Source of the DNA: an uncultured bacterium
GTDB lineage: Bacteria; Armatimonadota; UBA5829
Reading direction: 5' to 3'
Assembly (NCBI GenBank): GCA_964494345.1
Contig: CAZBSI010000003.1
Coordinates: forward strand, 165,888-229,887
DNA length: 64,000 nt
The translations under genes and the position numbers were made by a program. This document shows, in pieces, positions 30,349-47,616 of the stretch. The notes below the pieces were generated by a model, which was not told the DNA's origin, did no database searches, and saw only the letters and a list, made by a program, of their open reading frames with translations. The stretch's first letter is position 1, and every line of letters begins with the position of its first letter.

Positions 30349-31962
30349 TTAGAACTCCGCTGATCTCTTGATTTCGAGTTTTAAGCCGGGGATTGCTTCT
30401 ATGTATTCGGCGCGTTCCAGGCGGGCGGCGGCTATGAGGTAGTCTATTCTCGCCTGCGAATAATGCCGGTTCAGTTGATACTTTTCCAAATCAAGATCCG
30501 GGATTGATTCCGGCGTCTCAACCATCCAGTTTGGGTCCTCTCGCCAGTTGATTGACCCACGCGAGATAGCTCGAATAATCGCCGACATCTCATCTATTTC
30601 CACACGAGTGACCTTTTTTCTGACCCTGCGCGCACCATCTAAGCCCAGTTCGACGAGTTCCCCCACCCCGCCGGTATTCAGCATATAACATTCGACCTTA
30701 TCCTGATAGGACTTTATCAGCTCATAAAAAGCGTTCGCCTCGTCGGCTGGTTCGGCGATTAGCAGCGGGTTGCCGGCGATATCCCTGGCGTCCGGGCCGG
30801 TCGAATCAAAGGTTTCTGAAAGTAGAAACGCTACAGCAGCCTGTTCCGGGGTGAGTCTGCTTGCGATGGGAATTACCGTGTATTTGCGCACCATAAAAGC
30901 CACAATCAGCCCATCAAGTTCGTCAATCGAAGGCAGATCAATTGTGGACGCGGCGATATCGCCGAGATCTTCTCTCTGTATGGTCGCCCGGCCGTTGGCC
31001 GTAAGGGTTCGATCGTCAAAATAGACGTTGCCTTCGTAGTCTACTACAACATTGTCGAGAAGCGCCAATTGTGACGTGGCGGCGCGATACAGAGCAGGGT
31101 GCACTTTCGAACCGAGGCCTTCTGTTTTTATATAGAATCCTCGCTCCGAGCCCAACGCAGCGCCGTTGTCGCCCCAAAATACCACATCGTCCTGAGACAC
31201 CTCGACGCCCTCGCCGGGCAAATCCAAGCCGTGGTCTGAACATATATGAGTGGTCTTGCCTGAGGCTGACATACCGAACAGCAGCATTCCTAACTTGCGG
31301 ATGTCGCCATCCGGTCCGGCTGCTCGGATAATCTTCGTGCCTGCATGCAGCCCTAAAAGCCCTTGCTGCCTGGCTTTCCACATAGCCATTCGCAGAAATG
31401 CGTTCTTGGCCTCTCCATAATAATCCGTGCCGAGAACATAGGTTACGCCGAGTTCCGGAAAGACAAGTATCTGCCGATCCCTTTCCTGCCATTCCGGAAT
31501 AAAGACCGTTATAAGACGATCCCCGCCCTGGTGTCTGCTTGGAAACAGGGTCTGCATTACCTGATGAGCCAACCGCGCCGATTCTTTTCTGTAGGTGGAT
31601 AGATATAACGTACACTCAGGGGCAAAGCTGTCGTTGTCCCCCACCCTGCAATCGACTTTTAGCAGCGGCGTCTTTTTGAGATACCGATGAAGCGCACGCA
31701 CGGTCTCGGCTGCGTGTTTGGTTATGTCACGTTTTTTTGATGTCGACAGATCCGGCAGCACTCGCCTGCTGCCGAGGTTAACTGTCAACGCCGCGCTTTG
31801 ATTTTTGACCGTGGAGACATAATTTACGTTGCCAAACACCGTCGCTCTGCCGAATTCTTTGGCCCGTCGACAGATTTCGTCGGAAGTAAGCGAATATACA
31901 TTCGGCTGCTCCGATAACTCCAGAATAGTACGCTCGACGCCATCCAGCAGGGGTTGGGGCAC
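30349..31962 (-). CDS. pckA: Phosphoenolpyruvate carboxykinase-like protein (ATP-type kinase-1a motif)
   Basis: A 537-aa protein with the P-loop LFGMSASGKTTH followed by GEGVEVSQDDVVFW. This arrangement resembles ATP-dependent PEPCK. Confidence 0.6.
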   Translation of the reverse strand: MPQPLLDGVERTILELSEQPNVYSLTSDEICRRAKEFGRATVFGNVNYVSTVKNQSAALTVNLGSRRVLPDLSTSKKRDITKHAAETVRALHRYLKKTPLLKVDCRVGDNDSFAPECTLYLSTYRKESARLAHQVMQTLFPSRHQGGDRLITVFIPEWQERDRQILVFPELGVTYVLGTDYYGEAKNAFLRMAMWKARQQGLLGLHAGTKIIRAAGPDGDIRKLGMLLFGMSASGKTTHICSDHGLDLPGEGVEVSQDDVVFWGDNGAALGSERGFYIKTEGLGSKVHPALYRAATSQLALLDNVVVDYEGNVYFDDRTLTANGRATIQREDLGDIAASTIDLPSIDELDGLIVAFMVRKYTVIPIASRLTPEQAAVAFLLSETFDSTGPDARDIAGNPLLIAEPADEANAFYELIKSYQDKVECYMLNTGGVGELVELGLDGARRVRKKVTRVEIDEMSAIIRAISRGSINWREDPNWMVETPESIPDLDLEKYQLNRHYSQARIDYLIAAARLERAEYIEAIPGLKLEIKRSAEF

Positions 31963-32056
31963 GGATAATCACCTCAGACAATAGATACTTCGAGAATTAT
32001 AGCCATAGACCGGGGGTTGGTCAAACCCACAGCCCAAATCCCGGTAATGTTACCGC

Positions 32057-32085
32057 TTGACCTGTTGCTGGTAATCGTGCATACT
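32057..32085 (+). promoter_or_regulatory. Candidate promoter of giant gene 1 (TTGACC-N17-CATACT)
   Basis: The sequence is ttgacc-tgttgctggtaatcgtg-catact, about 260 nt upstream of the ATG. The same motif recurs upstream of giant gene 2. Confidence 0.45.
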
Positions 32086-32344
32086 GTCTATAGCTGAGCA
32101 TAGAGCAGGCTGGCAGTACTGTGGCGCTTATCGGGCGTGCCCAACAGGATGCAGAGACATCCGCGGATAAGCTTAGCGGCGGGATGGGTTTATCCACCTA
32201 AGCACGAATCCTCAACATTATTACCACCCGAAGCGCTTCATCACGCCTGCAATTTCTATCTCTGTTAGGCCGGAAACATAATTTACCCGCTTGCATTCTA
32301 CTATTAATTCACTATCAAAACAAAAGTATAAAGGAGGGTATGGA

Positions 32345-35300
32345 ATGCATCTTAAAACGTGCAATCGTTTTCTGATAATGTGCATTTGTTTATGCGCATT
32401 ATCAGTGCTTGTGGCTGCACCTGCGTTTGCCTATTGGGCGAACTCAGGCGAGAAAAACCCGACCAGCTTTTACAACGGCACCGGTTCCTGGGGAAGTGGC
32501 ACAAGCTGCAGCAGGGACTATTGGTACTGCTGGGCGATCAATGACACCAACGTCAAATTGGGCCAAACGGTAACGTGGAATCACGGCTGGACGTGGGCCG
32601 GACGTGGTTGGTTCCAGGAGGAGTTCTGGCGGCCGGGATACTTTAGCGGCAGCGTAGCCTATTCTAAGGCAAAGAGCATAAACACCGGCGGCGCCGTTAG
32701 CGATGCTTCGAAGCAGACTTATACTACCTGCTCTCAAGGCTGCGACTGGATAACTCTATGGACGGGCGCTGTTGCTAATGTTGCCAACCGTAACGGCGTT
32801 TTTATCGACACCAAAGAGAACATTGACTCTTGTAAGCCGGCCGGAAGCTCCATTACGATGGTTGGCCAGGTAAAAGGCTTTGGTGACAGATGGTCATATC
32901 TTAATAAGTGGGTTGTCTTGGGCCCGTTTAGTTCGACTTCTCTTGCCAATGCAAACGGCCTTGACGAAGCGAACCTGTATTTCTATCCATATATCGAGAC
33001 CAATAAAGGGACAGCTATTGTAGATGGTCTGTTTGGCGGAAAGAAGCCTGTGGCTCACGACGCCGGAGACTGCAACAACGCAAACACCCTAAATTTTGGC
33101 ACCCTATGGAATAAAAATGCAGACCAGGCTGGCTATGCTATGGCGTGGGTATATGCGCCTGGCGGAGCAGGGCCAAAGTTTGCAATCGGTTCTGACGACG
33201 GCTGCAAAATCTGGCTGAACGGCACCGTCATCCATACAAATGATAAAGCACGTGGCTTAATCCGAGATGAGGACGTAACTGCTTCTAAGAGCATGCCTTC
33301 TGGATGGAGCAGAGTGCTCTTTAAGATACAGCAGGGGCCTGGCGGCGGAAGTTGGGAAGGTACGATGAGCCTTCGCAACGGTGGTGATGTTAATCAGGAA
33401 GAAGGCAGCGTCGACTTCCAGACACACCGCTACGATGGCTATAGTATCTTCAACGAGCAGGACGGCTGGTTCCCTAAGATGACGCTGTCCAACTTCAACG
33501 GCGTCGCCAATCCTGCGCACGGTCTTACCATATATACGAACAATACCACAGTCACAGCGAGTGGTACTGTTACTGCGCAGTTCATTCCTTTCTGGAAGAC
33601 CGGATACTATCAGTGGGGCCGAGGGCTTTCCGGCGCCGATACGTACTATAAATTCACCACCAATAGTACCGCTACCTGGTCTCATACCGAGACTAATGTA
33701 ACCGGCTATAGACGACTCCACTTCTTCGGAATCAGCAAATCTGGTCGAACATCCGGCCAGGCGAGTGGTTCCAGTGGTGGATGGACCTATAACGGCACTG
33801 GTAACTGTGCCTGGGGTGCGGTTTTCGTAGATAACGTTGCTCCTAACAACCCGAGCTTCTCCAGCGTGAACGCAGTCAGCCCGACTCAGATCAACCTGGC
33901 CTGGGCTATTCCTCTGGACAAGGGCGTTGGCGTAGCTGATGGCGCTGCTGAGGACTCAGACAGCACCAATGGCGGAAGTTGCCACTATCGCCGAGGCGAT
34001 GTCGGCGTTAACGTTCGCCGTGGCGGCACATCGGTCTACGGCTGGGGTACTGGAACATCGTTTAACAACACCGGACTTACCCCGAATACTCAATATACTT
34101 TTGATATTGCCGCTCGCGACAACACCAGCCAGTCGAGGGGTGCGTGGGCAAATACGACCAACTATGTTGGCTCCACTTCTGTTTATACGCTTTCTCCGGC
34201 TCCTGTCGCCAACAGCGTTACCCCGAGCACAACTACTCCGTGCCAGGGCGCCAGCGTTGTATGGACAAACAACCTCGGTTGGGGCGCAGGCGGAGTTGAG
34301 TATTTCAGATATGCATGGGACAAGAGCGCCACACACACCTGGACCGACACCGAAACCAAGTGGAGCAGCGGTACTCTTTCCCTGGTTCCGACTTCCGGCG
34401 GAACGTGGTATCTGCACGTAAAGAGCTACAATGCCGGCGATGTTGCTAACGGAAGCTATGATTATTCCGTGGCTGCGAATGCGACCTTCTCTGTTGGAAC
34501 CATAACTGGCGGCGGCGGATCTGCCTGCGGAAGCATCGACCCGTCTGCAATGACCTACAGCGGCGGTTCCGGCGGCGGAGCGCTGACTTATCAGTGGTAC
34601 TCTGTGGAGGGCGCTGGTTCCCCGACTATCAACGACACCGAGATCACTGGTGCGACGGGTGCGTCTTATGATCCGCCTGCGGGTCTGACCACTACGACGA
34701 CATATAACGTGCTGGTTACTCCGACTTGTGGCACGGCTGCATTTACAGCAACGCCGGTAACAGTTACTGTCACCCCGGCGCCGGCCGTACCGACGAACGC
34801 TTCGACTAATGCTCGATGCGGCTCGGGTAACGTCGACTTCTCCGCAACGCCTGACACGGGTTGCACAATCAAGTGGTATTCTGCCGCTACAGGCGGAGTG
34901 GTTGTCAGCACGGCTAATCCGTATACTGAAAACCTCAGCGCCACCCAGACCTACTACGCGGCAAGCGTGAATGGGGAAGGCTGCGAGAGCACGACGAGAT
35001 TGGCTGTAACAGGCACAATCAATGACGCGCCTGCGGCTCCGACTAATGCTTCAAGCAACTCTCGATGCGGCGCTGGCGATGTCGTCTTCTCGGTGACTGC
35101 TGCCCAGGACAGCAGCGTGAAGTGGTATGACGCAGCTACCGGCGGCAACGTCGTGAGCACTGCTAATCCATACACTGCCAGCCTCAGCAGCACGACCACT
35201 TACTACGCTGCAAGCGTAGGCGACGATTGCGAGAGCGCGACTCGAACGGCGGTTACAGGAACTGTCTTTGCGATTCCTGCCGCACCGACCAACGCTTCGA

Positions 35301-38260
35301 CTAACGTCCGCTGCGGATCCGGCGAGATAGAGTTCTCCGTGGAAGTGGAGAGCGGCTGCTCCGTGAAGTGGTATGACGCTGCTACTGGTGGCAATGTGAT
35401 AAGCACTGCCAACCCGTATGCTGAGGACATAGAAGCTACGACAACATATTACGCAGCAAGCGTAAGTGCGGATGGCTGCGAGAGCGATACTCGAACCGCC
35501 GTCACCAGCACTATCAACGAGGTCCCTGATGCACCGACCAATCCTTCTGCAAACGCGATTTGCGGCGGAGGTGAGATCGACTTCAGCGTAACCCCGGCTG
35601 ATGGTTGCACGGTGAAGTGGTATGATGCAGAGACCGGCGGAAATGTGGCAAGCACCGCTAACCCGTATTCTGCTGAACTCTCTGAGACTACTACTCTGTA
35701 TGCTGTCAACGTTACAACCAATGGCTGCGAGAGCGCTGAGCGCACCGCAGTCACGGGCACTGTCAACGCCATACCTGCCGAGCCGACCAATGCTTCGGAA
35801 AACTCTCGGTGTGGTGAAGGTCTCGTCGACTTTGAAGTAAGTGTCGATGAAGGCTGCACGGTCAGATGGTATGACGCTGAGACGGATGGCAATGTGGTAA
35901 GCACTGCCAACCCGTACGCTGCGGAACTCTCTGAGACTACTACTCTCTATGCCGCCAGCGTAAGCGCAGACGGTTGCGAGAGCGAGCTCAAGACTGCCGT
36001 CACCAGCACCATATTCGACATCCCGGCTGCTCCGACTAACCCGTCCAGCAACTCCAGTTGTGGGTCAGGCGCAGTCGCATTTGCAGTCGCCGTGGATGAT
36101 GGATGCTCTGTCAAGTGGTATGACGCCGCTACCGGTGGGAACATGGTGAGCACTGCTAACCCGTATTCTACTAACCTGATGGCTACCACAACAATCTACG
36201 CTGCCAGCATTAGTGCAAACGGCTGCGAGAGTGCGACAAGGACTGCCGTTACAGGCACGGTAAACGCCATTCCCGCTGCTCCGGTCGATGCTTCTATGAA
36301 CGACCGCTGCGGCGCTGGTGAAGTTGACTTCGAGGTCAGCGTCGACGATGGCTGCTCTGTCCGGTGGTATGATGCCGCTACTGGTGGTAACGTGGTAAGC
36401 ACCGCTAATCCGTATACTGCGGATATATCTGCTACCACAACCCTGTTCGCCGCCACGGTAAGCGCGGCCGGATGTGAGAGCGCTGCGCGCACGGCGTGTA
36501 CCAGCGTTATCAATCCTCTGCCCGCAGCTCCGAGCGATGCGTCTAACAACGCTCGCTGTGGCGCCGGTACGGTTGCGTTTGAGGTTACTCCGGATACTGG
36601 TTGCACAGTGAGATGGTATGCTGCTGCCAGCGGCGGCGTTCCTGTAAGCATTGCCAACCCGTATTCGGCAAACCTGTCTGAGACTACTACTCTCTACGCC
36701 ACCAGCGTAAGCGCTGCCGGTTGTGAGAGCGAGACAAGGACGGCTGTAACCGGTGCTATTAATATCGTGCCGGGCGCGCCGACCAATGCTTCTGATAACT
36801 CTATCTGCGGCGCCGGCGAAGTTGACTTCGAGGTAACCGCTGCTGATAACTGCACGGTCAAGTGGTATGATGCGGCTACCGGTGGCAATGTAGTGAGCAC
36901 TGCCAACCCGTATACTGCTGAACTGACCGAGACTACTACTCTGTATGCTGCCAGCGTGAGCGTTGATGGCTGCGAGAGTGAGTCTAGATTGGCTGTCACG
37001 AGCACCGTCAATGATCTGCCCGCGGCTCCGGCTGACCCGTCTGCAAATGCAATTTGCGGCGAGGGTTCGGTTGCCTTTGGTGTGAGCGTTGGTGAGGGCT
37101 GCTCGGTTAAGTGGTATGACGCTGCTACAGGCGGCAACCTGGTGAGCACAGCCAACCCGTATACTGCTGAACTGGCCGAGACTACTACTCTGTATGCTGC
37201 CAGCGTAAACGCTGATGGCTGCGAGAGTGCGACAAGGACTGCTGTAACCGGCACCGTCAACGAGATACCTGAGGCTCCGGCCGATGCTTCCGAGAACGCC
37301 ATCTGTGGCGCGGGCGAGGTCGACTTCGAGGTGAGCGTTGATGAGGGTTGCACGGTTAAGTGGTATGATGCTGCAACTGGTGGCAATGTAGTGAGCACTG
37401 CCAACCCGTATACTGCTGAATTGGCCGAGACTACTACTCTGTATGCTGCCAGCGTGAGCGCTGATGGCTGCGAGAGTGAGTCGAGGACAGCCGTAACAAG
37501 CACGATTAACGAGGCTCCTGACGCTCCGACGAACGCTTCTGCTAATGTTCGCTGCGGCGTTGGTGATCTTGACTTCTCCGCGACAGCCGGCGATGGTTGC
37601 ACCATTGCGTGGTATGACGCGGCGACCGGTGGTAATCTGGTCAGCACGGCTAATCCTTACGCGGCCAGCCTGTCTGAGACTACTACTCTCTACGCTGCCA
37701 ACGTCAGCGCTGCTGGCTGCGAGAGCGAGAGACTGGCGGTTACGGGAACCGTGTTCTTTGACGAGGGTTCTATCCTTGCCGCAAAGCAGGCTGAAGTGGG
37801 CGCGCCGATTGAGCTCGGCAATAAGGCGCTCTACTTCAAGGGTGATGGCTTCGGTTACATCGAAGAAGCCAACCGCATCCACGGTATTCGAATCGAGGGT
37901 GCGATAGCTGCTGGTGAGGATTCTATCGTCAGCTTGATAGGTACACGAGGCGTCACGTCTGAAGGCGAGCCGTGCATAACGGTAAGCCAGATGACGGCGG
38001 CAGGTGCGGGTACGATTGCTCCCTGGGGAACCAATGGCAAATCGTTCCAGTTTAACCTGCTCGACGGCCTTTGCGCTAAGACCTGGGGTCAGGTAAAGTG
38101 GGGTTCGATTGATGGCAATTCTTATGTTGTCACGACCGGCTCTGCGGATACTGAGATCAAGGTCATAACCAAATCCGCCCCGACCGTGAGCGAAGGCGAC
38201 TTCGTGATCGTGACGGGAGCTGTCGGATTCGGCAACATTCGGGTGATCTACGCTAAGTAA
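32345..38260 (+). CDS. Giant secreted repeat protein (~1970 aa): signal peptide, PA14-like domain, 12 tandem ~82-aa Cys-containing Ig-like repeats, conserved ~165-aa C-terminal domain
   Basis: An AAGGAGGG RBS lies 7 nt upstream of the ATG at 32345. The signal peptide is MHLKTCNRFLIMCICLCALSVLVAAPAFA. A PA14-like stretch reads GSDDGCKIWLNGTVI. The repeat consensus is PTNAS.N.RCG.G.V.F.V....GC.VKWYDAATGGNVVSTANPYTA.LSETTTLYAASVS..GCES..RTAVTGTVN. Confidence 0.8.
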   Translation: MHLKTCNRFLIMCICLCALSVLVAAPAFAYWANSGEKNPTSFYNGTGSWGSGTSCSRDYWYCWAINDTNVKLGQTVTWNHGWTWAGRGWFQEEFWRPGYFSGSVAYSKAKSINTGGAVSDASKQTYTTCSQGCDWITLWTGAVANVANRNGVFIDTKENIDSCKPAGSSITMVGQVKGFGDRWSYLNKWVVLGPFSSTSLANANGLDEANLYFYPYIETNKGTAIVDGLFGGKKPVAHDAGDCNNANTLNFGTLWNKNADQAGYAMAWVYAPGGAGPKFAIGSDDGCKIWLNGTVIHTNDKARGLIRDEDVTASKSMPSGWSRVLFKIQQGPGGGSWEGTMSLRNGGDVNQEEGSVDFQTHRYDGYSIFNEQDGWFPKMTLSNFNGVANPAHGLTIYTNNTTVTASGTVTAQFIPFWKTGYYQWGRGLSGADTYYKFTTNSTATWSHTETNVTGYRRLHFFGISKSGRTSGQASGSSGGWTYNGTGNCAWGAVFVDNVAPNNPSFSSVNAVSPTQINLAWAIPLDKGVGVADGAAEDSDSTNGGSCHYRRGDVGVNVRRGGTSVYGWGTGTSFNNTGLTPNTQYTFDIAARDNTSQSRGAWANTTNYVGSTSVYTLSPAPVANSVTPSTTTPCQGASVVWTNNLGWGAGGVEYFRYAWDKSATHTWTDTETKWSSGTLSLVPTSGGTWYLHVKSYNAGDVANGSYDYSVAANATFSVGTITGGGGSACGSIDPSAMTYSGGSGGGALTYQWYSVEGAGSPTINDTEITGATGASYDPPAGLTTTTTYNVLVTPTCGTAAFTATPVTVTVTPAPAVPTNASTNARCGSGNVDFSATPDTGCTIKWYSAATGGVVVSTANPYTENLSATQTYYAASVNGEGCESTTRLAVTGTINDAPAAPTNASSNSRCGAGDVVFSVTAAQDSSVKWYDAATGGNVVSTANPYTASLSSTTTYYAASVGDDCESATRTAVTGTVFAIPAAPTNASTNVRCGSGEIEFSVEVESGCSVKWYDAATGGNVISTANPYAEDIEATTTYYAASVSADGCESDTRTAVTSTINEVPDAPTNPSANAICGGGEIDFSVTPADGCTVKWYDAETGGNVASTANPYSAELSETTTLYAVNVTTNGCESAERTAVTGTVNAIPAEPTNASENSRCGEGLVDFEVSVDEGCTVRWYDAETDGNVVSTANPYAAELSETTTLYAASVSADGCESELKTAVTSTIFDIPAAPTNPSSNSSCGSGAVAFAVAVDDGCSVKWYDAATGGNMVSTANPYSTNLMATTTIYAASISANGCESATRTAVTGTVNAIPAAPVDASMNDRCGAGEVDFEVSVDDGCSVRWYDAATGGNVVSTANPYTADISATTTLFAATVSAAGCESAARTACTSVINPLPAAPSDASNNARCGAGTVAFEVTPDTGCTVRWYAAASGGVPVSIANPYSANLSETTTLYATSVSAAGCESETRTAVTGAINIVPGAPTNASDNSICGAGEVDFEVTAADNCTVKWYDAATGGNVVSTANPYTAELTETTTLYAASVSVDGCESESRLAVTSTVNDLPAAPADPSANAICGEGSVAFGVSVGEGCSVKWYDAATGGNLVSTANPYTAELAETTTLYAASVNADGCESATRTAVTGTVNEIPEAPADASENAICGAGEVDFEVSVDEGCTVKWYDAATGGNVVSTANPYTAELAETTTLYAASVSADGCESESRTAVTSTINEAPDAPTNASANVRCGVGDLDFSATAGDGCTIAWYDAATGGNLVSTANPYAASLSETTTLYAANVSAAGCESERLAVTGTVFFDEGSILAAKQAEVGAPIELGNKALYFKGDGFGYIEEANRIHGIRIEGAIAAGEDSIVSLIGTRGVTSEGEPCITVSQMTAAGAGTIAPWGTNGKSFQFNLLDGLCAKTWGQVKWGSIDGNSYVVTTGSADTEIKVITKSAPTVSEGDFVIVTGAVGFGNIRVIYAK
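34775..37750 (+). repeat. Array of 12 tandem ~246-nt (82-aa) coding repeats inside giant gene 1
   Basis: The 12 (K/R/A)WY(D/S/A)A..GG motifs are spaced about 82 aa apart. Confidence 0.75.
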
Positions 38261-38284
38261 CGCCCGAAGCCGACGACAAACCAA

Positions 38285-38318
38285 CCGGCCTGCTCAATTT
38301 AGAGCGGGCCGGTTTTTT
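38285..38318 (+). terminator. Rho-independent terminator of giant gene 1
   Basis: The hairpin is ccggcctgctc-aattta-gagcgggccgg, followed by TTTTTT. Confidence 0.75.
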
Positions 38319-38497
38319 ATGAGACTTGGCGCCTGTAACATTTTTGGCGAAATTACCGATTGCGGTGTCATATATAATGGAAGTTGAGTTGTGATACTGC
38401 CGGGCTTGTTCAGTAATATCAACTAAATGTAAGTCGATTATGCGCCGGCGCAAGCTTGTGATTCACAACTACGTAATAGTACCAGGTTGACTCCACT

Positions 38498-38526
38498 GTA
38501 AAAACCACGCATACTGAGATTGCGTG
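38498..38526 (+). promoter_or_regulatory. Candidate promoter of giant gene 2 (TTGACT-N17-CATACT)
   Basis: The sequence is ttgact-ccactgtaaaaaccacg-catact, about 90 nt upstream of the ATG. It has the same -10 and nearly the same -35 as giant gene 1. Confidence 0.45.
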
Positions 38527-38616
38527 TAATTTTAAAGAGGGGCAAAGCTCAGTCGACCTTTGTCTCCGTCGAGTCGATCATATATTCTTTCGATAGGATT
38601 ACGCGGAGGTGTGTGG

Positions 38617-41600
38617 ATGAAAAGGATTGCTATGATTTGCTTGTTGGCGCTGTGTGCGTCAACTGTGTGTGCAGGAGGTTTCTGGGCAAACTGTGTCCGA
38701 ACCTCTACCGCAGGAGGTTGGGCGGAATATTCTGCACCTGAAGGATGCAGTACTATCTGGGTTGGCTGGGGTAGCAACGGAGCTGACCGCTGCAGGTGGT
38801 ATAACGCCAGCGAAATACCGCATCGTGACCAGTATTTAACCTACCGGCACGGATTCAATCTACGGGCCAATGGCGACACCAACGCTTTGCACTGGTCTTA
38901 TGCCGAAGGCTCTTATAGCGGTAATCAGACATTTAACCAGAAAGGCGCCGGCGGTTGGACCGAACCCACTATCAATGCGAGAGCCTCATACAACTGGGAC
39001 GATTGGATGGAAGTCGGATCGGACTGGGGCGGCGGAATGGACACAGTATGCAACGTCGCCCGATTATATCCAGAGTTAGATGCCATCTACAAGGCCAAAT
39101 CTGTAGAGCCTAACATGTATATGGGTAACGTCTACAAGTGGATATACGACATGGAGAACCCGTGGTATGCCTGGTGGACGTGGAATACCGCAGCCGATCA
39201 GTTCTACCACATCGGAGGAGTTGTATCGGGTCCAGGCTGGTATTCTTCTGGGGCGGTCGTCAGCGCGCCCGGCACTGCTCCTGAGGGGGTTATGTACTGC
39301 CATTTCAATATGCGCCCTACGCAGACGGGCACATCTAACGAAGACTTCCAGATGATCCGCAATGGCACCTCGTGGTTTGGCGACAAACCCGCCAGCAACA
39401 GCGATATGCGCACCGCAGTTACCGTAACCCGAAAGAACCCGTCGGCAACTGCCGGCTGGGATAGTGGCGCCAAGAAAAAGGGCGAGACTGTACGGTTCAG
39501 CGTCTACGGCGCGGATAGCTGGGGCGCTGGAGACAACTATAGCTGGGATTTCGACCATAACACCACACAGGGTTGGTATGCTGGAAACAACACTACTATT
39601 ACAAAAGAGTCCGGCCAAATTAAGATCGGAATAACCGGCGCCGACCCGTTTGTCTACAGTTTCGGCGGCTTGGCTATTAATACTAACCAGTGCAAATATG
39701 TCTCAATCAGAATGAATGCCAACGGAGGCTCCACCGCGCAGTTCTTCTGGAAGGGCACAGCCGGCGATTGGTCATCGGCCCGCCAGGTCGATTTCGACAT
39801 ATATTCCGATAGTAAATGGCACATTTACACCATTCCGCTGCCTGCATCGTGGACCGGAACGGTCACTCAGTTCCGTTTCGACCCGGTTCAGACCGGTGCA
39901 GCAAACGGCCAAACGGTCTATGTAGACTGGATCCGCATCCACAACGTCAACGCCGGAATGTCGGCGAAAGCGTGGCTGGGCAAAGCGAACAACTCGTGGA
40001 CTATATGGAGCGAGCAAGCAGCCACCTGGGATGGGACTAACGTCTGCTGGTATAAAGACTATATAATCCCGGACGGCTATCCGCAGACGTACTATCACGT
40101 GATGCACGTTTATAACAACGCCAATCAGACTGAGGGTGAGGACCCGGATCGTCGCTATGCTCAGTATCAGCGTGCGTATAAGGTGCTGAACACTGCGCCG
40201 AGTGCGACGAACAACTCGTATCCTTCAAACGGCTGGTGCACTACCAAGACACCTGCTCTGGGCTGGAACTACACTGATACCGACTCTAACGCTCAGAGCC
40301 GATATCAGGTGCAGGTTTCTACTGCGGCGAACTTCAGCAATATCGTTGCTGACACCGACCTTGTTGCTTCGAACGCAAACTCCTGCACCGCACCGTCTCT
40401 GCCGGAAGGGCAGTTGTATTATCGAACCAGGGTCATGGACGGCGCGTATGCCAATGTGAACGCCACTTATCAGGGCGGTTGTTTACTGAACCAGAACGGG
40501 GCGCTTTCTGGTGACCCGAACAGCAAGTCCGTGGATTTTAACGGCACAAACGGTTATGTCAATCTGCCGTCCGGCTTTGACAGCTTCGGCAGCGGGTTCA
40601 CTTGTGAGTTCTGGGCATATCCGACTGCTGCAAATAGTTGGGCAAGGTTCCTGGATATGGGAAACGGCGCACCGATGGATAATATCATCATCGCACGCCG
40701 TTCGACCAGTGACGACCTGATATTCTCCGTTCGGCGAGGGGACGCTGTTGAGATGTCCGTTAAGGCTGAGAATGTCATCAGCCTGAACACCTGGCAGCAC
40801 TTCGTGTTGACTTTGGATACGAGCGGCTACGGACGAATCTACAAAAACGGCTCTTTGGTTGCACAGGGGCCGATGCAAATGCCGGAAGTGGTTAATCTTA
40901 CCAAATGTTACATCGGCAAAAGCAACTGGGACGCGGACGCCTATTACAAAGGCCGGCTGGGCGAGTTTGCCATCTACGACAGATGCCTGCCTGCTGCTGA
41001 GGTTTCAAGCCACTACTCCAAGGCTTCGCAGTCCGACTCTGCGTACAGGGATGCCGTCTGTGCCAACAGCCCGTGGGTATACTATCGCTTCGACGAGGTC
41101 TCCGGCACTACAGCCTCTGCCTATACGGGTATGCTCTCTAACTGGTCTGCCGGAACCAACTTCAGGGTGGACAGCATAGCTCCGACTCAGCCGAGCATCA
41201 CAGGCATTGATTTAAGCAGTTGCACAACTGCTTCGGTGTCGTTCGGAGGCTCCGTTGATGATAATGCCGTCACTTATGAAGTGAAGCTGGATAACGGCGC
41301 TTTTGAAGCTAAGACCAGCCCGGCGGTGTTTTCTTCGTTGGCTAATGGGCCTCACATGGTTTATGTGAGGGCGATCGACGAGGCTGGAAATATCAGCGAG
41401 GTCGCCAGCCAGCCATTCGACAACTCCGCACCTGCCGCCCCGACTAACGCTTCGGCTAATGCCCGGTGTGGCTCGGGTATTGTTGAGTTCTCCGTGACTT
41501 CTGATTCGGGCTGCACGGTTAAATGGTATGACGCGGCGACCGGTGGCAATGTGGTTAGCACAGCTAATCCGTATTCGGAGAGCCTTACCGCGACTACGAC

Positions 41601-44600
41601 CTACTACGCTGCGAGCGTAAGCCCTTCGGGTTGCGAGAGTGCGACTAGACTGGCTGTAACCGGCACGATCAGTGATCTGCCTGCCGCACCGACTAATGCT
41701 TCCAACAACTCTCGATGCGGTGCGGGTGACGTTGAATTCTCCGTGACCCCTGCTGAGGGCTTTGATGTGAAGTGGTATGATGCTCCTACCGGCGGCAACG
41801 TCGTGAGCACTGCCAATCCGTTCACTGAAACGCTCAGCGCCACGACCACTTATTATGCCGCGAGCGTCAGTGACGAATGCGAAAGCGCGACTCGGACTGC
41901 GGTTACAGGAACTGTCTTTGTGATTCCTGCCGCACCGACCAACGCTTCGGCTAACGTTCGCTGCGGATCCGGAGAAATAGAGTTCTCCGTGGCAGTAGAG
42001 AGCGGTTGCTCTGTGAAGTGGTATGACGCAGAGGTCGGCGGCAATGCGATAAGCACTGCCAACCCATACTCTGAAGAGATCGATGCCACAACAACCTACT
42101 ACGCATCGACGGTGAGCGCGGATGGCTGCGAGAGTGAGGAAAGGCTGGCTGTTACGGGAACTGTTAATGAGATCCCGGCCGCCCCGACCAACGCATCCGC
42201 TAACGCCATCTGCGGATTGGGAATCGTTGGCTTCTCCGTTACGCCTGCCGCAGGCTGTAGCGTGATATGGTATGATGCAGCTATCGGTGGAAATGTGGTT
42301 AGCACCGCTAATCCGTATAACCCGACCCTGAGCATCACGACTACTTACTATGCTGCAAGCGTCAGCGATAAAGGTTGCGAGAGCACCGCGAGATTGGCTG
42401 TAACGGGCACTGTCAATGCTATCCCGGCGGCTCCGACGAACGCTTCAGCTAATGCCCGGTGCGGGTCTGGTGATGTTGACTTCTCAGTAACCCCTGCCGC
42501 AAACTGCACAGTTAAATGGTATGATGCGGCTACTGGCGGAACTGTTGTCAGCACAGCCAATCCATACACCGAAGACCTGTCAGCCGCCAAGACCTACTAC
42601 GCCGCCAGCGTAAGCGCTGCCGGTTGTGAAAGTGCGACGAGGCTGGCTGTTACAGGCACAGTCAACGAGATTCCGGCCACTCCGACGAACGCCTCGAGTA
42701 ACTCTCGCTGCGGCGCCGGACAGGTGGCGTTCTCAGTAGATGCCGCTTCCGGATGCACTGTGAAATGGTATTCGGCTGCGACTGGCGGAACATTGCTCAG
42801 CACGGCCAATCCATACACGGTATCTCTAAGCAACACAACCACCTATTACGCGACAAGCGTGAGCGCTGCCGGCTGCGAGAGCGCGACGAGGACTGCCGTT
42901 ACCGGCACGGTAAATGCCATTCCCGCTGCCCCGGCAGACGCTTCTTCGAATGATCGCTGTGGCTCTGGAGCAATCGACTTCGAGGTCAGCGTAGACAATG
43001 GCTGCTCTGTCCGCTGGTATGATGCAGCTTCGGGCGGCAATGTGATTAGCACTGCCAACCCGTATACTGCTGAATTGACAGAGACGACAACTCTCTACGC
43101 CGCCGCCGTAAGCGCTGCCGGTTGTGAGAGTACGACCAGATTGGCGGTAACAAGCACTGTCAATCCTCTGCCCGCAGCTCCGAGCGATGCGTCTAACAAC
43201 GCTCGCTGTGGCACCGGTGCGGTTGCGTTTGAGGTTACTGCGGACACTGGTTGCACAGTGAGATGGTATGCTGCTGCCACCGGCGGTGTTCCTGTAAGCA
43301 TTGCCAACCCGTATTCGGCGAACCTGTCTGAGACCACTACTCTCTACGCCGCCAGCGTAAGCCCCGCCGGTTGTGAGAGCGCGACAAGGACGGCTGTAAC
43401 CGGCGCTATTAATATCGTGCCGGGCGCACCGACTAATGCTTCAAGCAACGAGCGATATGGGGAGGGCAATGTAGACTTCTCCGTGACCGCCGCCGGTAAT
43501 TGCACAATCGCGTGGTATGACGCACAGACCGGTGGAAACCTGGTCAGCACGGCTAATCCTTACACGGCTGAATTGACCGAGACCACTACTCTGTATGCCG
43601 CTAACGTGAGCGCAGAGGGTTGTGAGAGCGCAAGGACCGCGGTTACGGGCACAGTCAATGAGATGCCTGATCCGCCTACCATCTCTATCGGTTCTCCGTC
43701 GGCTTCGCTGACCAAGAGTGGCCCGATTACATTCGAGATCACCTACGGCGACGCGACCGATGTTACCCTCTCTGAGGATGACATCACGCTGAACACCACC
43801 GGAACCGCGACTGGAGCCATCCAGGTCAGCGGCGACGGTCTGACAACTCGAACGGTCACCATTTCCGATATCACCGGGGATGGAACCATCGGAATATCGA
43901 TTGCCGAGGGAACTGCTGTTGGACTGGCTGATCTTGAAGCCCCGCCTGCAGGCCCAAGCGATACGTTCATGGTCGACAACACCGCACCGACCACGGAAGC
44001 CGCCCCTGTCGGCGGAGTCTACAGCGCAGCGCAGAACGTGACGTTGACTGCCGACGATGCCTCGGCGATCTACTATACGGTCGACGGTTCTTTACCGACT
44101 ACCGAATCGACTCTCTATACCGGCGCTGTTTCGATAAGCGCTGACGCGACACTTAAGTTCTTCGCGGTCGACGAGGCTGGTAATGCTGAATCGATCAAGC
44201 AGGAGATCTATGCTATTCTCGACGACGAGGGTTCTATCCTTGCTGCGAGGCAGGCAGAAGTGGGCGCGCCGATTAAGCTCGGCAACAAGACGCTCTACTT
44301 CAAGGGTGATGGCTTCGGTTACATCGAGGAAGCCAACCGCATCCAGGGTATTCGAATCGAGGGTGCGATAGCTGCTGGTGAGGATTCCATCGTCAGCTTG
44401 ACAGGTACACGAGGCGTCACGTCCGAAGGCGAGCCGTGCATAACGGTAAGCCAGTTGACGGCGGCAGGCGAAGGTACGGTTGCTCCCTGGGGAACCAATG
44501 GCAAGTCGTTCCAGTTTGACCTGCTTGATGGCCTGTGTGTTAAGACCTGGGGTCAGGTGAAGTGGGGTTCGATTGATGGCAATTCTTACGTTGTCACGAC

Positions 44601-44724
44601 CGGCTCTGCTGATACTGAGATCAAAGTCATAACTAAATCCGCTCCGACCGTGAGCGAAGGCGACTTCGTGATCGTGACAGGCGCAGTCGGATTCGGCAAC
44701 ATTCGGGTGATCTACGCTAAGTAA
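38617..44724 (+). CDS. Giant secreted repeat protein (~2035 aa): signal peptide, beta-rich N-terminal region, LamG/concanavalin-like domain, Fn3-like modules, 9 tandem ~82-aa Cys-containing repeats, chitobiase/hexosaminidase-C-like module, conserved ~165-aa C-terminal domain
   Basis: A GGAGG RBS precedes the ATG at 38617. The signal peptide is MKRIAMICLLALCASTVCAGG. A LamG_3-like stretch reads FTCEFWAYP...WQHFVLTLDTSGYGRIYKNGSLVAQG...RLGEFAIYDRCLPAAEV. The repeats are the same family as in giant gene 1. TLKFFAVDEAGNAES matches a chitobiase-C-type module. Confidence 0.8.
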   Translation: MKRIAMICLLALCASTVCAGGFWANCVRTSTAGGWAEYSAPEGCSTIWVGWGSNGADRCRWYNASEIPHRDQYLTYRHGFNLRANGDTNALHWSYAEGSYSGNQTFNQKGAGGWTEPTINARASYNWDDWMEVGSDWGGGMDTVCNVARLYPELDAIYKAKSVEPNMYMGNVYKWIYDMENPWYAWWTWNTAADQFYHIGGVVSGPGWYSSGAVVSAPGTAPEGVMYCHFNMRPTQTGTSNEDFQMIRNGTSWFGDKPASNSDMRTAVTVTRKNPSATAGWDSGAKKKGETVRFSVYGADSWGAGDNYSWDFDHNTTQGWYAGNNTTITKESGQIKIGITGADPFVYSFGGLAINTNQCKYVSIRMNANGGSTAQFFWKGTAGDWSSARQVDFDIYSDSKWHIYTIPLPASWTGTVTQFRFDPVQTGAANGQTVYVDWIRIHNVNAGMSAKAWLGKANNSWTIWSEQAATWDGTNVCWYKDYIIPDGYPQTYYHVMHVYNNANQTEGEDPDRRYAQYQRAYKVLNTAPSATNNSYPSNGWCTTKTPALGWNYTDTDSNAQSRYQVQVSTAANFSNIVADTDLVASNANSCTAPSLPEGQLYYRTRVMDGAYANVNATYQGGCLLNQNGALSGDPNSKSVDFNGTNGYVNLPSGFDSFGSGFTCEFWAYPTAANSWARFLDMGNGAPMDNIIIARRSTSDDLIFSVRRGDAVEMSVKAENVISLNTWQHFVLTLDTSGYGRIYKNGSLVAQGPMQMPEVVNLTKCYIGKSNWDADAYYKGRLGEFAIYDRCLPAAEVSSHYSKASQSDSAYRDAVCANSPWVYYRFDEVSGTTASAYTGMLSNWSAGTNFRVDSIAPTQPSITGIDLSSCTTASVSFGGSVDDNAVTYEVKLDNGAFEAKTSPAVFSSLANGPHMVYVRAIDEAGNISEVASQPFDNSAPAAPTNASANARCGSGIVEFSVTSDSGCTVKWYDAATGGNVVSTANPYSESLTATTTYYAASVSPSGCESATRLAVTGTISDLPAAPTNASNNSRCGAGDVEFSVTPAEGFDVKWYDAPTGGNVVSTANPFTETLSATTTYYAASVSDECESATRTAVTGTVFVIPAAPTNASANVRCGSGEIEFSVAVESGCSVKWYDAEVGGNAISTANPYSEEIDATTTYYASTVSADGCESEERLAVTGTVNEIPAAPTNASANAICGLGIVGFSVTPAAGCSVIWYDAAIGGNVVSTANPYNPTLSITTTYYAASVSDKGCESTARLAVTGTVNAIPAAPTNASANARCGSGDVDFSVTPAANCTVKWYDAATGGTVVSTANPYTEDLSAAKTYYAASVSAAGCESATRLAVTGTVNEIPATPTNASSNSRCGAGQVAFSVDAASGCTVKWYSAATGGTLLSTANPYTVSLSNTTTYYATSVSAAGCESATRTAVTGTVNAIPAAPADASSNDRCGSGAIDFEVSVDNGCSVRWYDAASGGNVISTANPYTAELTETTTLYAAAVSAAGCESTTRLAVTSTVNPLPAAPSDASNNARCGTGAVAFEVTADTGCTVRWYAAATGGVPVSIANPYSANLSETTTLYAASVSPAGCESATRTAVTGAINIVPGAPTNASSNERYGEGNVDFSVTAAGNCTIAWYDAQTGGNLVSTANPYTAELTETTTLYAANVSAEGCESARTAVTGTVNEMPDPPTISIGSPSASLTKSGPITFEITYGDATDVTLSEDDITLNTTGTATGAIQVSGDGLTTRTVTISDITGDGTIGISIAEGTAVGLADLEAPPAGPSDTFMVDNTAPTTEAAPVGGVYSAAQNVTLTADDASAIYYTVDGSLPTTESTLYTGAVSISADATLKFFAVDEAGNAESIKQEIYAILDDEGSILAARQAEVGAPIKLGNKTLYFKGDGFGYIEEANRIQGIRIEGAIAAGEDSIVSLTGTRGVTSEGEPCITVSQLTAAGEGTVAPWGTNGKSFQFDLLDGLCVKTWGQVKWGSIDGNSYVVTTGSADTEIKVITKSAPTVSEGDFVIVTGAVGFGNIRVIYAK
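41428..43660 (+). repeat. Array of 9 tandem ~82-aa coding repeats inside giant gene 2
   Basis: The 9 WYDA..GG motifs have regular spacing. Several repeats are more than 90% identical at nucleotide level to repeats of giant gene 1. Confidence 0.75.
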
Positions 44725-44748
44725 CGCCCGAAGCCGACGACAAACCAA

Positions 44749-44783
44749 CCGGCCCGTTCTAAATTGAACGGGCCGGTTTTTTT
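44749..44783 (+). terminator. Rho-independent terminator of giant gene 2
   Basis: The hairpin is ccggcccgttc-taaatt-gaacgggccgg, followed by TTTTTTT. It is a compensatory-mutated copy of the giant gene 1 terminator. Confidence 0.75.
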
Positions 44784-44926
44784 ATTAGGCTAATGCCTGA
44801 GATTTGTCGTAAGATTCATTGAGTTGCAACAGCTCACGAATGATGAGCGCTCCTGCCAGTAGTGTCCGATCTCCTTCTCGGACAAGGCTGTAACAGAGGT
44901 CAGCTACTAAACTCGGATACATCAAG

Positions 44927-44966
44927 TATCGGAAAAAGCAGATTTCTCACTTCGTTCGAAATGACA
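44927..44966 (-). terminator. Intrinsic terminator of xth; a second copy of the pck terminator hairpin
   Basis: The minus-sense sequence is ugucauuucgaacgaagugagaaaucugc-UUUUUCCGAUAC, 42 nt after the xth stop. Confidence 0.5.
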
Positions 44967-45007
44967 TAGCTTGTGTGACCGCAACGAAAGCCAGCCGCAA
45001 CAATCAC

Positions 45008-45817
45008 TCACAAAGAGTGAGCTGTTACATCGAGTTGAAAATCCGCGACGACGAATGTGTGGTCGGAGGGTTTCTCCATTGATCTTGGTTCGAGGTCGAT
45101 CCAGGAGTCCGAAGACTTATCTGCAAGAGGCGCCGTGGCCCAAATGTGGTCGATTCTCCAGCCCAATTTACGCTTGAGCGCGTTGGGGATGCGGTAGTCG
45201 TAGAAGGAGTATTGCTTGGGCTCGCCGGGATGGTGCTTGCGAAAGACATCGACGAAACCCCATTGCTTCACCTGCGCTAAGGCTTCATGCTCTCTCGGGT
45301 GGAAGCATACACTGCCTAACAATCGCTCCGGATCATATACATCTATGGACTCCGGCGCGACGTTGAAATCCCCCACCCATACCACCGGAGTTGACGGAGT
45401 AAAATTGCGATCAAAATAGTCCTTAAGCGCGGATATCCAGTTGAGTTTGTATTCAAATCGTGGAGATTCGACCGCTGTTCCCTGTGGTATGTAGGTGTTT
45501 ACGACCTCGACACCGCGAACCTTAGCCCGGATGATACGAGCCTCATTGTCGAGACCCTCGACTCCAAGCCCGGTGGTAACGTTCTCAGGCTCTGTGTGAC
45601 AGAGGATAGCTACCCCATTAAAGGATTTCTGGCCCAGAAAAACGGCGTGATAGCCGATTTCCTCGAATGCGGCGACCGGAAACGCGTCGTCCATTACACG
45701 AGTTTCCTGAATGCAAAGCGCGTCAGGCTCGTGCTTGCGCAGCCAGCCAGTGGTAATCTCGAGCCGGCTGCGCAGCGAATTAGCGTTGAACGTAGCAATC
45801 CTGAATCTGTTTTCCAT
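45008..45817 (-). CDS. xth: Exodeoxyribonuclease III (AP endonuclease, ExoIII/APE1 family)
   Basis: A 269-aa protein starting MENRFRIATFNANSLRSR and containing the WRIDHIW motif. Confidence 0.85.
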   Translation of the reverse strand: MENRFRIATFNANSLRSRLEITTGWLRKHEPDALCIQETRVMDDAFPVAAFEEIGYHAVFLGQKSFNGVAILCHTEPENVTTGLGVEGLDNEARIIRAKVRGVEVVNTYIPQGTAVESPRFEYKLNWISALKDYFDRNFTPSTPVVWVGDFNVAPESIDVYDPERLLGSVCFHPREHEALAQVKQWGFVDVFRKHHPGEPKQYSFYDYRIPNALKRKLGWRIDHIWATAPLADKSSDSWIDLEPRSMEKPSDHTFVVADFQLDVTAHSL

Positions 45818-45844
45818 TACAGATCTGCCTTGTCCGTTTTAATG

Positions 45845-47038
45845 TTAAGCCTGCGCTTTGATCATCGATCCGACCTTGCGACCAAGCTGAACACAGTCAG
45901 CGAGGTTTTCATCTGTCGGAACGTAGTTTACTCGCAGGCACTCTCCAGCGGACTCATATTTCATTTCCGCAAGAAACGTATCCAGGAGGCGGGGAGCTTC
46001 CCCACCCCACCCGTAAGAACCAAATGCCGCGCCGATCTTTCCGAGCGGGCGTAGGCCTTTCATATAGGTGATCATATCCGCCATTCGGGGCAGCATTCCA
46101 TTATTGAGCGTCGCCGAACCGAGCACGACCGCCTTGCAATCGAGTAGTTCGGTCATCACATCGCTGCGATGATACTCAGAAAGCGGCATAAGCATAACTT
46201 CAGCGCCGGATTCTCTAATTCCATCGACGATAGCGTTCGCCATCATCTCAGTCGAATGCCACATAGTGTCGTAGACTACCACGGCTTTATCAATGGTAAT
46301 CTGCTTGCTCCATTGATCCCACAAATCGAAGATGACCTGTGGTTTGGTGCGCCAAATCGGGCCGTGATCCGGAGCGATCATATCGATTTTTAGCTCCATC
46401 TGCCTGACATTGTGCAGCGCCCTTTGTATCAAGGTGGAGTATAGCAGCAGGATGTTTGCGTAGTATTTCTTCGCCTGCCGCATCAGCTCGTCCTGATCGA
46501 CCTCGTCGTCGAATCTCTCGTCGGTCGCCCAGTGCAAGCCGAAGCCGTCCTGCGATATCAGAAGAGCATCCTCTTCGATATAAGAGAACATACTGTCCGG
46601 CCAATGGATCATCTTCGTCTCAATGAACTTGATGTTCTTTTTGCCGGTGTTTATGCTCTGCCCGGTGGCGACGACCTCGTAAGGCCAGTCTGCGTTGTGG
46701 AAATGAGCCAGCAGGGCCTTTTTTCCGTTGGCCGAGCAGATGATCTTCTCCGGCTTCACCGCATCGATGATCTCCGGCAGTGAACCGCTGTGATCCAGTT
46801 CGACGTGATTGACCACAATGTAGTCGATTTTTGAGGGCTCTATAATCTCGCTGATGCGCGCGAGCATCTCCGACGCGAATCCTTTGGCCACTGTATCGAA
46901 CAACACGATTTTGTCATCGACAAGAAGATACGCGTTGTATGTCGTGCCAAAGGGCGTCGAATAACCGTGGAAGTCGCGAACCGATTTGTCGATCGCGCCG
47001 ACCCAATATATGCCCTTCTTCAGTTCAGTTGGCTGCAT
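45845..47038 (-). CDS. Class A flavodiiron protein (metallo-beta-lactamase-like diiron domain plus flavodoxin domain)
   Basis: Carries the FDP diiron ligand motif HVELDHSG. It is 397 aa with a C-terminal flavodoxin-like region. Confidence 0.85.
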   Translation of the reverse strand: MQPTELKKGIYWVGAIDKSVRDFHGYSTPFGTTYNAYLLVDDKIVLFDTVAKGFASEMLARISEIIEPSKIDYIVVNHVELDHSGSLPEIIDAVKPEKIICSANGKKALLAHFHNADWPYEVVATGQSINTGKKNIKFIETKMIHWPDSMFSYIEEDALLISQDGFGLHWATDERFDDEVDQDELMRQAKKYYANILLLYSTLIQRALHNVRQMELKIDMIAPDHGPIWRTKPQVIFDLWDQWSKQITIDKAVVVYDTMWHSTEMMANAIVDGIRESGAEVMLMPLSEYHRSDVMTELLDCKAVVLGSATLNNGMLPRMADMITYMKGLRPLGKIGAAFGSYGWGGEAPRLLDTFLAEMKYESAGECLRVNYVPTDENLADCVQLGRKVGSMIKAQA

Positions 47039-47040
47039 TT

Positions 47041-47616
47041 TTACCAGTTCTCGCCGAGCAGTTCAAAGTGGGCCTGCGGATGCGCGCACGCCGGGCAGGC
47101 TTTGAGGGCTGCTTTACCCGTGTGAATATAGCCGCAGTTTCTGCATCTCCAGGTGACCTCAGTGTCGCGCTCGAAGACCTTGCCCGCCTCGATATTGCTG
47201 GCAAATGCGAGGAATCTCGACTCGTGCTGCTTCTCGGCAACAGCGATCGACTCGAATACCGCAGCGATTCCGGAGAGTCCCTCTTCGCGTGCGATTGCCG
47301 CGAAACCGGGGTACATTGAGGTATGCTCGTAGTTCTCGCCACCTGCAGCGGCTTTCAGGTTCTCGACTGTGGAGCCGATAACACCCGCCGGGTATTTGTC
47401 GGTGATCTCGACTTCCCCGCCTTCGAGGAGCTTAAAGAGCCGCTTTGCGTGCTCTTTTTCCTGATTTGCGGTCTCTTCGAATGCGTCAGCTATCTGTACA
47501 TAGCCGTCTTTTTTGGCCTGACTCGCGAAGAAAGTGTAGCGATTTCGGGCCTGCGATTCGCCTGCAAAGGCGGCCAGGATGTTTTTTTCCGTGCGTGTTC
47601 CTTTGATACTAGCCAT
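47041..47616 (-). CDS. rbr: Rubrerythrin
   Basis: Has a ferritin-like four-helix domain with ExxH pairs and a C-terminal rubredoxin-like CRNCGY...CPACAH. Confidence 0.9.
   Translation of the reverse strand: MASIKGTRTEKNILAAFAGESQARNRYTFFASQAKKDGYVQIADAFEETANQEKEHAKRLFKLLEGGEVEITDKYPAGVIGSTVENLKAAAGGENYEHTSMYPGFAAIAREEGLSGIAAVFESIAVAEKQHESRFLAFASNIEAGKVFERDTEVTWRCRNCGYIHTGKAALKACPACAHPQAHFELLGENW

Follow-up and report, generated by a model that had tools for sequence, protein, structure and literature searches.

We analysed a 64-kb stretch of an Armatimonadota genome (contig CAZBSI010000003.1; the whole 64,000-nt stretch is called the window below) in which two adjacent genes encode giant secreted proteins, and found that each protein ends in one 166-residue member of the same unannotated domain family, hereafter the C-terminal domain (CTD). 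Gene 1 encodes a signal peptide (predicted cleavage between AFA and YWAN), an N-terminal region of ~800 aa without family assignment, 13 Ig_7 repeats and the CTD. Gene 2, the product of which is identical to database protein P0003, encodes a signal peptide, a Laminin_G_3 domain, nine Ig_7 repeats, a CHB_HEX_C_1 domain (about nt 44005-44199) and the CTD. The two proteins have unrelated N-terminal parts (800-900 residues), and their Ig_7 arrays are 65-75% identical in DNA (BLASTN). The CTD-coding DNA forms part of a direct repeat that runs on into an intrinsic terminator, and the two copies bound a unit that is absent from L003, a contig of a related Armatimonadota metagenome-assembled genome (MAG; JBMNES010000001.1) taken from a GTDB scan and compared by BLASTN and alignment. 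The features of the locus, in window coordinates, are as follows (ORF, open reading frame; OB, oligonucleotide/oligosaccharide-binding; AF2, AlphaFold2; HMM, hidden Markov model).

32345..38260, plus strand: gene 1, a 1971-aa secreted giant protein (the ORF opens with TTG at 32291, first ATG at 32345; translation, Pfam, hydropathy).
37760..38318, plus strand: direct repeat copy 1 (CTD coding 37760-38257, stop codon 38258-38260, spacer, terminator; alignment, BLASTN).
37805..38008, plus strand: predicted N-terminal OB barrel of CTD copy 1 (model residues 19-86, with a short helix before it at 37772-37789; AF2, conservation, sub-threshold HMM matches).
38072..38254, plus strand: predicted C-terminal OB barrel of CTD copy 1 (model residues 108-168, ending in R-V-I-Y-x-[KR]; AF2, sub-threshold RMI2 matches).
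38283..38320, plus strand: intrinsic terminator 1 (13-bp stem, 6-nt loop, T-run).
38319..44782, plus strand: 6,464-bp unit absent from L003 (intergenic spacer, body of gene 2, one CTD/terminator copy; BLASTN).
38617..44724, plus strand: gene 2, a 2035-aa secreted giant protein (ORF 38560-44724, first ATG at 38617; Pfam).
44224..44782, plus strand: direct repeat copy 2 (CTD coding 44224-44721, stop codon 44722-44724, spacer, terminator; alignment, BLASTN).
44747..44785, plus strand: intrinsic terminator 2 (the hairpin of terminator 1 with one compensatory pair and one G.U to G-C change).

The two copies of the repeat are 559 nt long (37760-38318 against 44224-44782) and 92.8% identical in nucleotides by MAFFT and BLASTN. 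On the 5' side the similarity sets in abruptly at the codons for DEGSILAA, and it fades just past the T-run; the flanks are unrelated on both sides, with an Ig_7 repeat upstream of the CTD in gene 1 and CHB_HEX_C_1 in gene 2. Within the coding part 33 of 501 nt differ (93.4% identity), and the two CTD proteins differ at 10 of 166 residues (94% identity). The 32 differing codons comprise 22 synonymous and 10 non-synonymous changes, and the coding repeat has therefore evolved under purifying selection since the copies parted. An earlier note on this DNA, made from the letters alone, had given the shared block an identity of ~96% and a start at 37751. The identity was slightly too high and the start lay 9 nt off the true one at 37760, while the near-identical, sharply delimited C-terminal block itself is real. 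The note had also claimed that identity continues past the stop codon into the terminator, and this is what we observed: from the stop codon to the terminator stem, 33 nt are identical in both copies (38258-38290, 44722-44754), and the hairpin is common to both. Its description of the stems as differing only by compensatory changes was roughly right, in that the 13-bp stems differ by one truly compensatory pair (C-G to U-A), the other change being G.U to G-C; the loops differ at four positions. The hairpins have folding energies of -26.4 and -29.4 kcal/mol (z about -4.8 and -4.9, respectively) and are followed by T6-7. The identical 33 nt, which adjoin coding DNA with synonymous differences in 22 of 166 codons and of which L003 differs at three positions, may be a conserved element of the 3' untranslated region or may owe their identity to chance.

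The CTD is far from private to this locus. An exhaustive HMMER profile search over 1.84 billion cluster representatives (clusters at 50% identity) recovered 332 representatives at E<=1e-3, 107 at E<=1e-10 and 54 at E<=1e-30. Other secreted proteins, among which the earlier note had proposed to look for the same C-terminal domain, do carry it, the 332 clusters being mostly signal-peptide-bearing proteins. A word-indexed homologue search returned only two proteins with the single CTD and 13 with a 51-member profile, mostly fragmentary. Position and passenger statistics were drawn from the best 150 HMMER matches, which included 107 full-length domain matches. Each of the 107 lay in a protein of its own, so that no protein had the domain twice; the domain ended exactly at the C-terminus in 43 of them and within 15 residues of it in 98. 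CTD proteins ranged from 170 to 2035 aa (median 904), and a signal-peptide-like hydrophobic N-terminus was present in 69 of the 82 complete proteins of at least 400 aa. The family is defined by a profile match over about 165 aa that includes the motifs FGYIEE-DR-GIR, WG-V, DGSD-GI-V-T and GAAG-RVIY at the C-terminus. In the 51-member alignment, the consensus reads GSIA-AK ... K-LY-K ... FGYIEE-DR--GIR-EG ... LV-L-GT ... GGERYI ... PLG-NN ... DGLYV--WG-VK-GS ... SYVI-DGSD--GI-V-T-G-P-V--G-FV-VTGAAG-DG-RVIY, with the tail G-x-R-V-I-Y-x-[KR]. Both copies in the window scored 215-219 bits against the 51-member profile, matching the family motifs at the C-terminus. With an average net charge of -3.8, the domain is acidic.

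Curated resources did not recognise this family. Pfam-A and NCBIfam gave no match to the CTD alone or within both full proteins, and PDB sequence searches with both profiles returned nothing significant. Models of the C-terminal domains of the type IX secretion system (T9SS; TIGR04183/PF18962 and PF13585/TIGR04131) did not match either protein, the CTD alone or the 51 members at E<=1. No LPXTG or PEP motif and no PF07589 or PF00746 match was found, the maximum 19-mer hydropathy in the last 200 aa was 1.31, and motif and hydropathy checks revealed no transmembrane-like segment in any family CTD. The autotransporter beta-domain (PF03797; 12-stranded, about 250-300 aa) likewise gave no Pfam match, the CTD being 166 aa long and predicted to form two small soluble barrels. 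These Pfam/NCBIfam, motif and hydropathy scans agree with the earlier note, which had seen no LPXTG, PEP-CTERM, T9SS CTD or autotransporter signature and no transmembrane helix. None of the 51 CTDs matched a Pfam family of carbohydrate-binding modules (CBMs), and matches to CBM6, CBM9 and CBM35 fell in passenger regions; the domain is thus neither confined to two genes nor matched by a Pfam CBM family or a T9SS CTD model. The best match to the BOF/YgiW-YdeI family (PF04076, NF033674) stayed below threshold at 18.3 bits against a cut-off of 25.8, and the sequences make the CTD at most a distant relative of it. Searching the literature for sorting domains or CTDs of Armatimonadota turned up nothing relevant.

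We modelled the CTD with AF2 on the 51-sequence alignment, which gave a predicted local distance difference test (pLDDT) score of 94.1 and a predicted template-modelling (TM) score of 0.89; a 4-sequence alignment had reached a pLDDT of only 32. In the model, a short helix (residues 8-13) is followed by two five-stranded beta units (19-86 and 108-168), which places the CTD, as predicted, in the OB-fold structural class, as a tandem of five-stranded barrels. Foldseek searches against the PDB returned OB folds only (E about 1e-3, TM 0.3-0.4), the full-length matches being tandem-OB HIN-200 domains and the one-barrel matches the anticodon-binding domains of Lys- and Asp-tRNA synthetases, Cdc13/Stn1 and Ten1; a BFVD fold search gave generic OB proteins only. 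Recurrent sub-threshold HMM matches were likewise all to OB families. Among the 51 CTDs, the Pfam matches were RMI2 (17), tRNA_anti-codon (10), BOF (4) and CcmE (3), with BOF and tRNA_anti-codon on the first barrel and RMI2 on the second, and the NCBIfam matches were to the YgiW/YdeI stress OB fold (8 of 51, best E-value 2.3e-4). The N- and C-terminal halves of the CTD show a weak likeness (hhalign E 6.6e-5, probability 64%), which is consistent with an origin by internal duplication. The strongest conservation (FGYIEE-DR-GIR and SYVI-DGSD-GI-V) falls on strands 2-3 and the connecting loop of each barrel, and the N-terminal barrel holds the most conserved motif of the family, FGYIEE-DR-GIR-EG. 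Going by the model and by what is known of the fold, strands 2-3 would be the usual OB ligand face, and conservation there argues for one common ligand.

All taxonomically labelled matches came from Armatimonadota, namely seven of seven GTDB loci (MAGs) and both named NCBI proteins, which are named only after their CHB_HEX_C_1 domain. The passengers that carry the CTD were diverse. Proteases were represented by Peptidase_C10 with an I69 inhibitor domain, besides which there were carboxypeptidase-regulatory-like domains; glycosidases included glycoside hydrolase (GH) family GH99 with CBM6 and fn3, GH9, GH16 and a GH130-like domain; and other passengers contained a calcineurin-like phosphoesterase (Metallophos), CBM9, CBM35, LVIVD, Ig_7, Ig_3, Big_5 or TIG. 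CHB_HEX_C_1 directly abutted the CTD, with no linker, in 12 of 25 proteins scanned. Neighbourhoods were sampled at 15 related loci (seven GTDB, eight metagenome) of at most 20 kb each, obtained with one narrow peptide pattern. CTD genes cluster, and one genome can hold several of them, with two in this window and a second, partial copy at locus L012, and tandem CTD genes are not peculiar to this window. At L005 (JAUSGG010000114.1, 1-10978), two full CTD genes, a weak partial CTD at the locus start and a GH123/BNR gene lie head to tail in 11 kb, one of the CTD genes being GH99+CBM6+fn3+CHB_HEX_C_1+CTD. At L006 (DATKXU010000126.1, 18-6492), in one lineage only, a Tad-like set (T2SSE ATPase, two T2SSF) and a PEP-CTERM protein lie directly upstream of a TIG/Big_5-CTD protein. 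At L001/L004 (CAVQDB010000005.1, about 6600-10513), a 65%-identical CTD was called as a stand-alone 170-aa protein; Amidase_3 and fn3 repeats lie upstream of it, broken by frameshifts typical of a long-read MAG, and the 170-aa protein is probably the end of one large gene.

Going by sequence features, the CTD shows the typical signature of a sorting or anchoring domain: single-copy, at the extreme C-terminus, on diverse passengers with signal peptides and, so far, in one phylum. Because this single-copy terminal module is attached to unrelated signal-peptide-bearing passengers, is modelled as a tandem OB fold and belongs to no curated family, we infer that it lends all passengers a common property via one partner. 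Our preferred reading, to which we lend about even credence, is that the CTD would be an Armatimonadota terminal module docking secreted passengers to a conserved envelope partner, with both role and partner putative. A multi-domain passenger with a single C-terminal CTD would be exported by Sec, after which the beta2-loop-beta3 faces of both barrels would bind one conserved envelope partner, for which an outer-membrane protein or a surface glycan is a candidate. Docking would then retain the passenger at the surface of the cell or deliver it to a translocon in the outer membrane. There is a precedent in periplasmic OB-fold proteins of the BOF type, which bind outer-membrane proteins (YgiW-OmpF, YdeI-OmpD and SipA-OmpA; PMC6370654); the resemblance of the CTD to BOF is sub-threshold, so the precedent is only a lead. 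As a tentative extension, the CTD could be the recognition tag of an as yet undescribed, Armatimonadota-specific pathway that moves large (semi-)folded proteins across, or onto, the outer membrane, in which case it might fill the role that the T9SS CTD system has in Bacteroidota, with another fold. The earlier note had suggested an uncharacterised secretion, sorting or attachment signal. This remains the leading hypothesis for what is an uncharacterised family found well beyond these two genes, with the sorting or anchoring role itself putative.

Several observations weigh against docking to an envelope partner. The fold matches are weak (TM 0.3-0.4), and the OB assignment therefore rests on topology together with consistent weak matches, with no close structural relative. 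ORF clustering over the 15 loci found no neighbour gene conserved beyond orthologous loci, and the genes of the 64-kb window include no partner, secretion or sorting machinery; the sortase, T9SS, S-layer or other secretion genes that the earlier note had proposed to look for were not found nearby, within the window. T9SS families had no match among the genes scanned in the window and the related loci. Furthermore, 9 of the 107 proteins carry 116-904 residues after the CTD, and many passengers are carbohydrate-active enzymes, which would also fit a substrate-binding module.

Such a module, the main rival, in which the tandem OB binds a polysaccharide or biofilm-matrix polymer and concentrates enzymes or adhesins on the substrate and not on the producer cell, seems to us rather unlikely. 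Many members are glycoside hydrolases or carry CBM6, CBM9 or CBM35, and the OB fold is a known sugar-binding scaffold, as in the B subunits of AB5 toxins and the OB-like CBM10. The acidity of the CTD is compatible with glycan binding, and it argues against nucleic-acid binding, an idea raised by the HIN-200 and aminoacyl-tRNA synthetase fold matches that we rejected as a leading one, the CTD being acidic and extracytoplasmic. However, CBMs usually vary in position and number, whereas the CTD is terminal and never duplicated. It is also found on C10 proteases, phosphoesterases and giant Ig-repeat proteins with CBMs or lectin domains of their own, and it matches no CBM family and is known, wherever labelled, from one phylum. 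We consider it distinctly improbable that the CTD is a structural or folding module (a C-terminal cap, an intramolecular chaperone or a stalk base for long beta-rich proteins) with no external partner. The stability and compactness of OB barrels would suit this, as would the lack of a linker between the CTD and the Ig-like or CHB_HEX_C_1 domain before it, but the CTD is found on unrelated architectures of very different length, compact enzymes included, and a cap would be expected to show mainly core conservation, whereas conservation in the CTD centres on the ligand faces typical of the fold and on an invariant RVIY at the end.

The remaining alternative, a recent segmental duplication or gene conversion of adjacent genes with no distinct function for the C-terminus, bears on the history of the repeat, for which the sister genome is informative. 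L003 matches the window over 31750-38326 at 83.5% (L003 1-6577; intergenic region between PEPCK and gene 1, gene 1, CTD and terminator) and over 44224-49706 at 89.3% (L003 6010-11525; CTD, terminator and all downstream of gene 2). It has a single giant gene with a single CTD, and one CTD/terminator there connects what lies upstream of copy 1 with what lies downstream of copy 2. The repeat therefore bounds the 6,464-bp unit, which recombination either added or removed: gene 2 came in through recombination at the shared module, or it was deleted from L003 by recombination between the direct repeats. Genes 1 and 2 share the CTD module and terminator by duplication or recombination, which gives the two-copy DNA repeat. 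The absence of exactly one repeat unit from L003 shows recombination at the repeat, and identity past the stop codon into the terminator, with 33 identical non-coding nt, also favours a recent event. The earlier note had stressed strong conservation on otherwise diverged paralogs. The CTD is indeed a conserved family, but the identity runs into non-coding DNA, L003 lacks gene 2 and the Ig_7 arrays are related (75% in nucleotides), so that the similarity of the two copies reflects duplication or recombination at least as much as selection. Yet copy 1 and copy 2 resemble each other (92.8%) no more than they resemble the L003 orthologue (copy 1, 91.2%; copy 2, 92.1%). From these star-like identities, the copies appear about as old as the species split, old and conserved and not freshly converted, and together with the synonymous bias (22 to 10) they led us to reject recent gene conversion as the sole cause. 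The presence of the CTD in 332 clusters with different N-terminal parts had already largely refuted a C-terminus with no distinct function, and we regard this alternative as very improbable. The CTD is also better conserved than the gene-1 alignment overall (91-92% against 83.5% in L003). In MAG AS10tlH2TH_383, one contig (L002) stops exactly at the terminator and another (L008) starts inside the CTD and runs into PEPCK and GH2, as does a third (L009); such contig ends are typical assembly breaks at a multi-copy repeat.

Several further observations concern genes 1 and 2 and their surroundings. The Ig_7 arrays (PF19081, 'CHU_C associated'; 13 and 9 copies) lie at 34778-37750 and 41428-43670, in Armatimonadota proteins that have no CHU_C/T9SS type B CTD and instead end in the tandem-OB domain. 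The predicted mature N-termini begin with YWAN in gene 1 (32345-32440) and FWAN in gene 2 (38617-38700), an aromatic-W-A-N motif right after the predicted cleavage site. A match of PF22338 (Pyruv_OxRed_insertion) to an 18-residue piece of Ig_7 in gene 1 (residues 1055-1072 in TTG-start numbering) scored 48.8 bits, above cut-off, and is almost certainly spurious and repeat-driven. A 739-aa ORF on the minus strand (36065-38284), antisense to the Ig_7 array and CTD, is most likely not a gene but a shadow ORF that mirrors the GC-rich, repetitive coding strand. Elsewhere in the window, the minus strand carries a complete dcw cluster (743-14175; mraW, ftsI, murE, murF, mraY, murD, ftsW, murG) that ends in a single 753-aa ORF fusing MurC and MurB domains. 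Other window genes encode RND efflux with OEP, Yip1/TPR, two M48 peptidases, GH2, PEPCK, a flavodiiron protein, rubrerythrin, a C39-like peptidase, Lon and GH94. By their family assignments, the OEP and RND genes indicate a diderm envelope.

The Armatimonadota, a diderm phylum, are widespread and poorly cultured, and they are rich in secreted enzymes that degrade polymers. A domain common to hundreds of their secreted proteins offers a handle for finding the export machinery or surface receptor, a simple marker for predicting the surface proteome of Armatimonadota from MAGs, and a candidate display tag. With it, the known uses of the OB fold extend to a tandem arrangement at the end of extracellular proteins, and the family merits a Pfam or NCBIfam entry. 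The comparison with the sister genome further shows that shared terminal modules act as recombination sites, at which whole passenger genes are added or lost.

Among known systems, the closest functional analogy would be the T9SS CTDs of Bacteroidota (type A, TIGR04183/PF18962; type B, CHU_C, PF13585). These too are all-beta modules, found in one phylum at the very end of unrelated enzymes and adhesins exported by Sec, and their Bacteroidota carriers have the same passenger types (Peptidase_C10, Ig_7 'CHU_C-associated' repeats, glycoside hydrolases). There is, however, no sequence match; the domain described here is about 166 aa long compared with about 80-100 aa, and is predicted to be a tandem OB barrel, whereas the T9SS CTD is a single Ig-like beta-sandwich. 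SLH domains and dockerins offer a functional analogy only, as one conserved module on many secreted enzymes that binds a common surface partner; they have no sequence or fold relationship to the CTD, and no cohesin-like partner or partner for secondary cell-wall polymer synthesis was identified.

Closer in fold are several OB proteins. The arrangement of the modelled CTD is closest, at low similarity, to tandem-OB domains such as HIN-200 (AIM2/IFI16/p202), which gave the best full-length Foldseek matches (4jbj, 5z7d, 2oq0) and have two consecutive OB barrels in about 170-200 residues. Identity to these is 7-12% (TM 0.35-0.41, root-mean-square deviation 7-15 A) and the arrangement of the barrels differs; HIN domains are eukaryotic, intracellular, basic DNA binders, whereas the CTD is bacterial, extracytoplasmic and acidic. 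OB domains of the YhcR/ExeM type (CDD cd04486) occur in secreted bacterial nucleases of many phyla, usually at N-terminal or internal positions. Their strand pattern, V-x-L-x-G-x-V ... GFYIQD ... GI-V ... GD-V-V-G, resembles that of the CTD, and PF01336 was a weak Pfam match in 10 of 51 CTDs; unlike these multi-phylum, nuclease-associated domains, the CTD is terminal. The only recurrent HMM matches to envelope proteins came from the N-terminal barrel with its leading helix and were to the BOF/YgiW-YdeI-SipA family (PF04076, NF033674, TIGR00156), whose members are OB-fold proteins outside the cytoplasm with outer-membrane proteins as binding partners (PMC6370654). A BOF protein is a small, stand-alone periplasmic protein with one OB fold, in contrast to the two barrels fused here to the ends of large proteins. 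Overall, the CTD is best described as a new domain family on the theme of phylum-specific C-terminal sorting or anchoring domains, with a fold not previously tied to that role.

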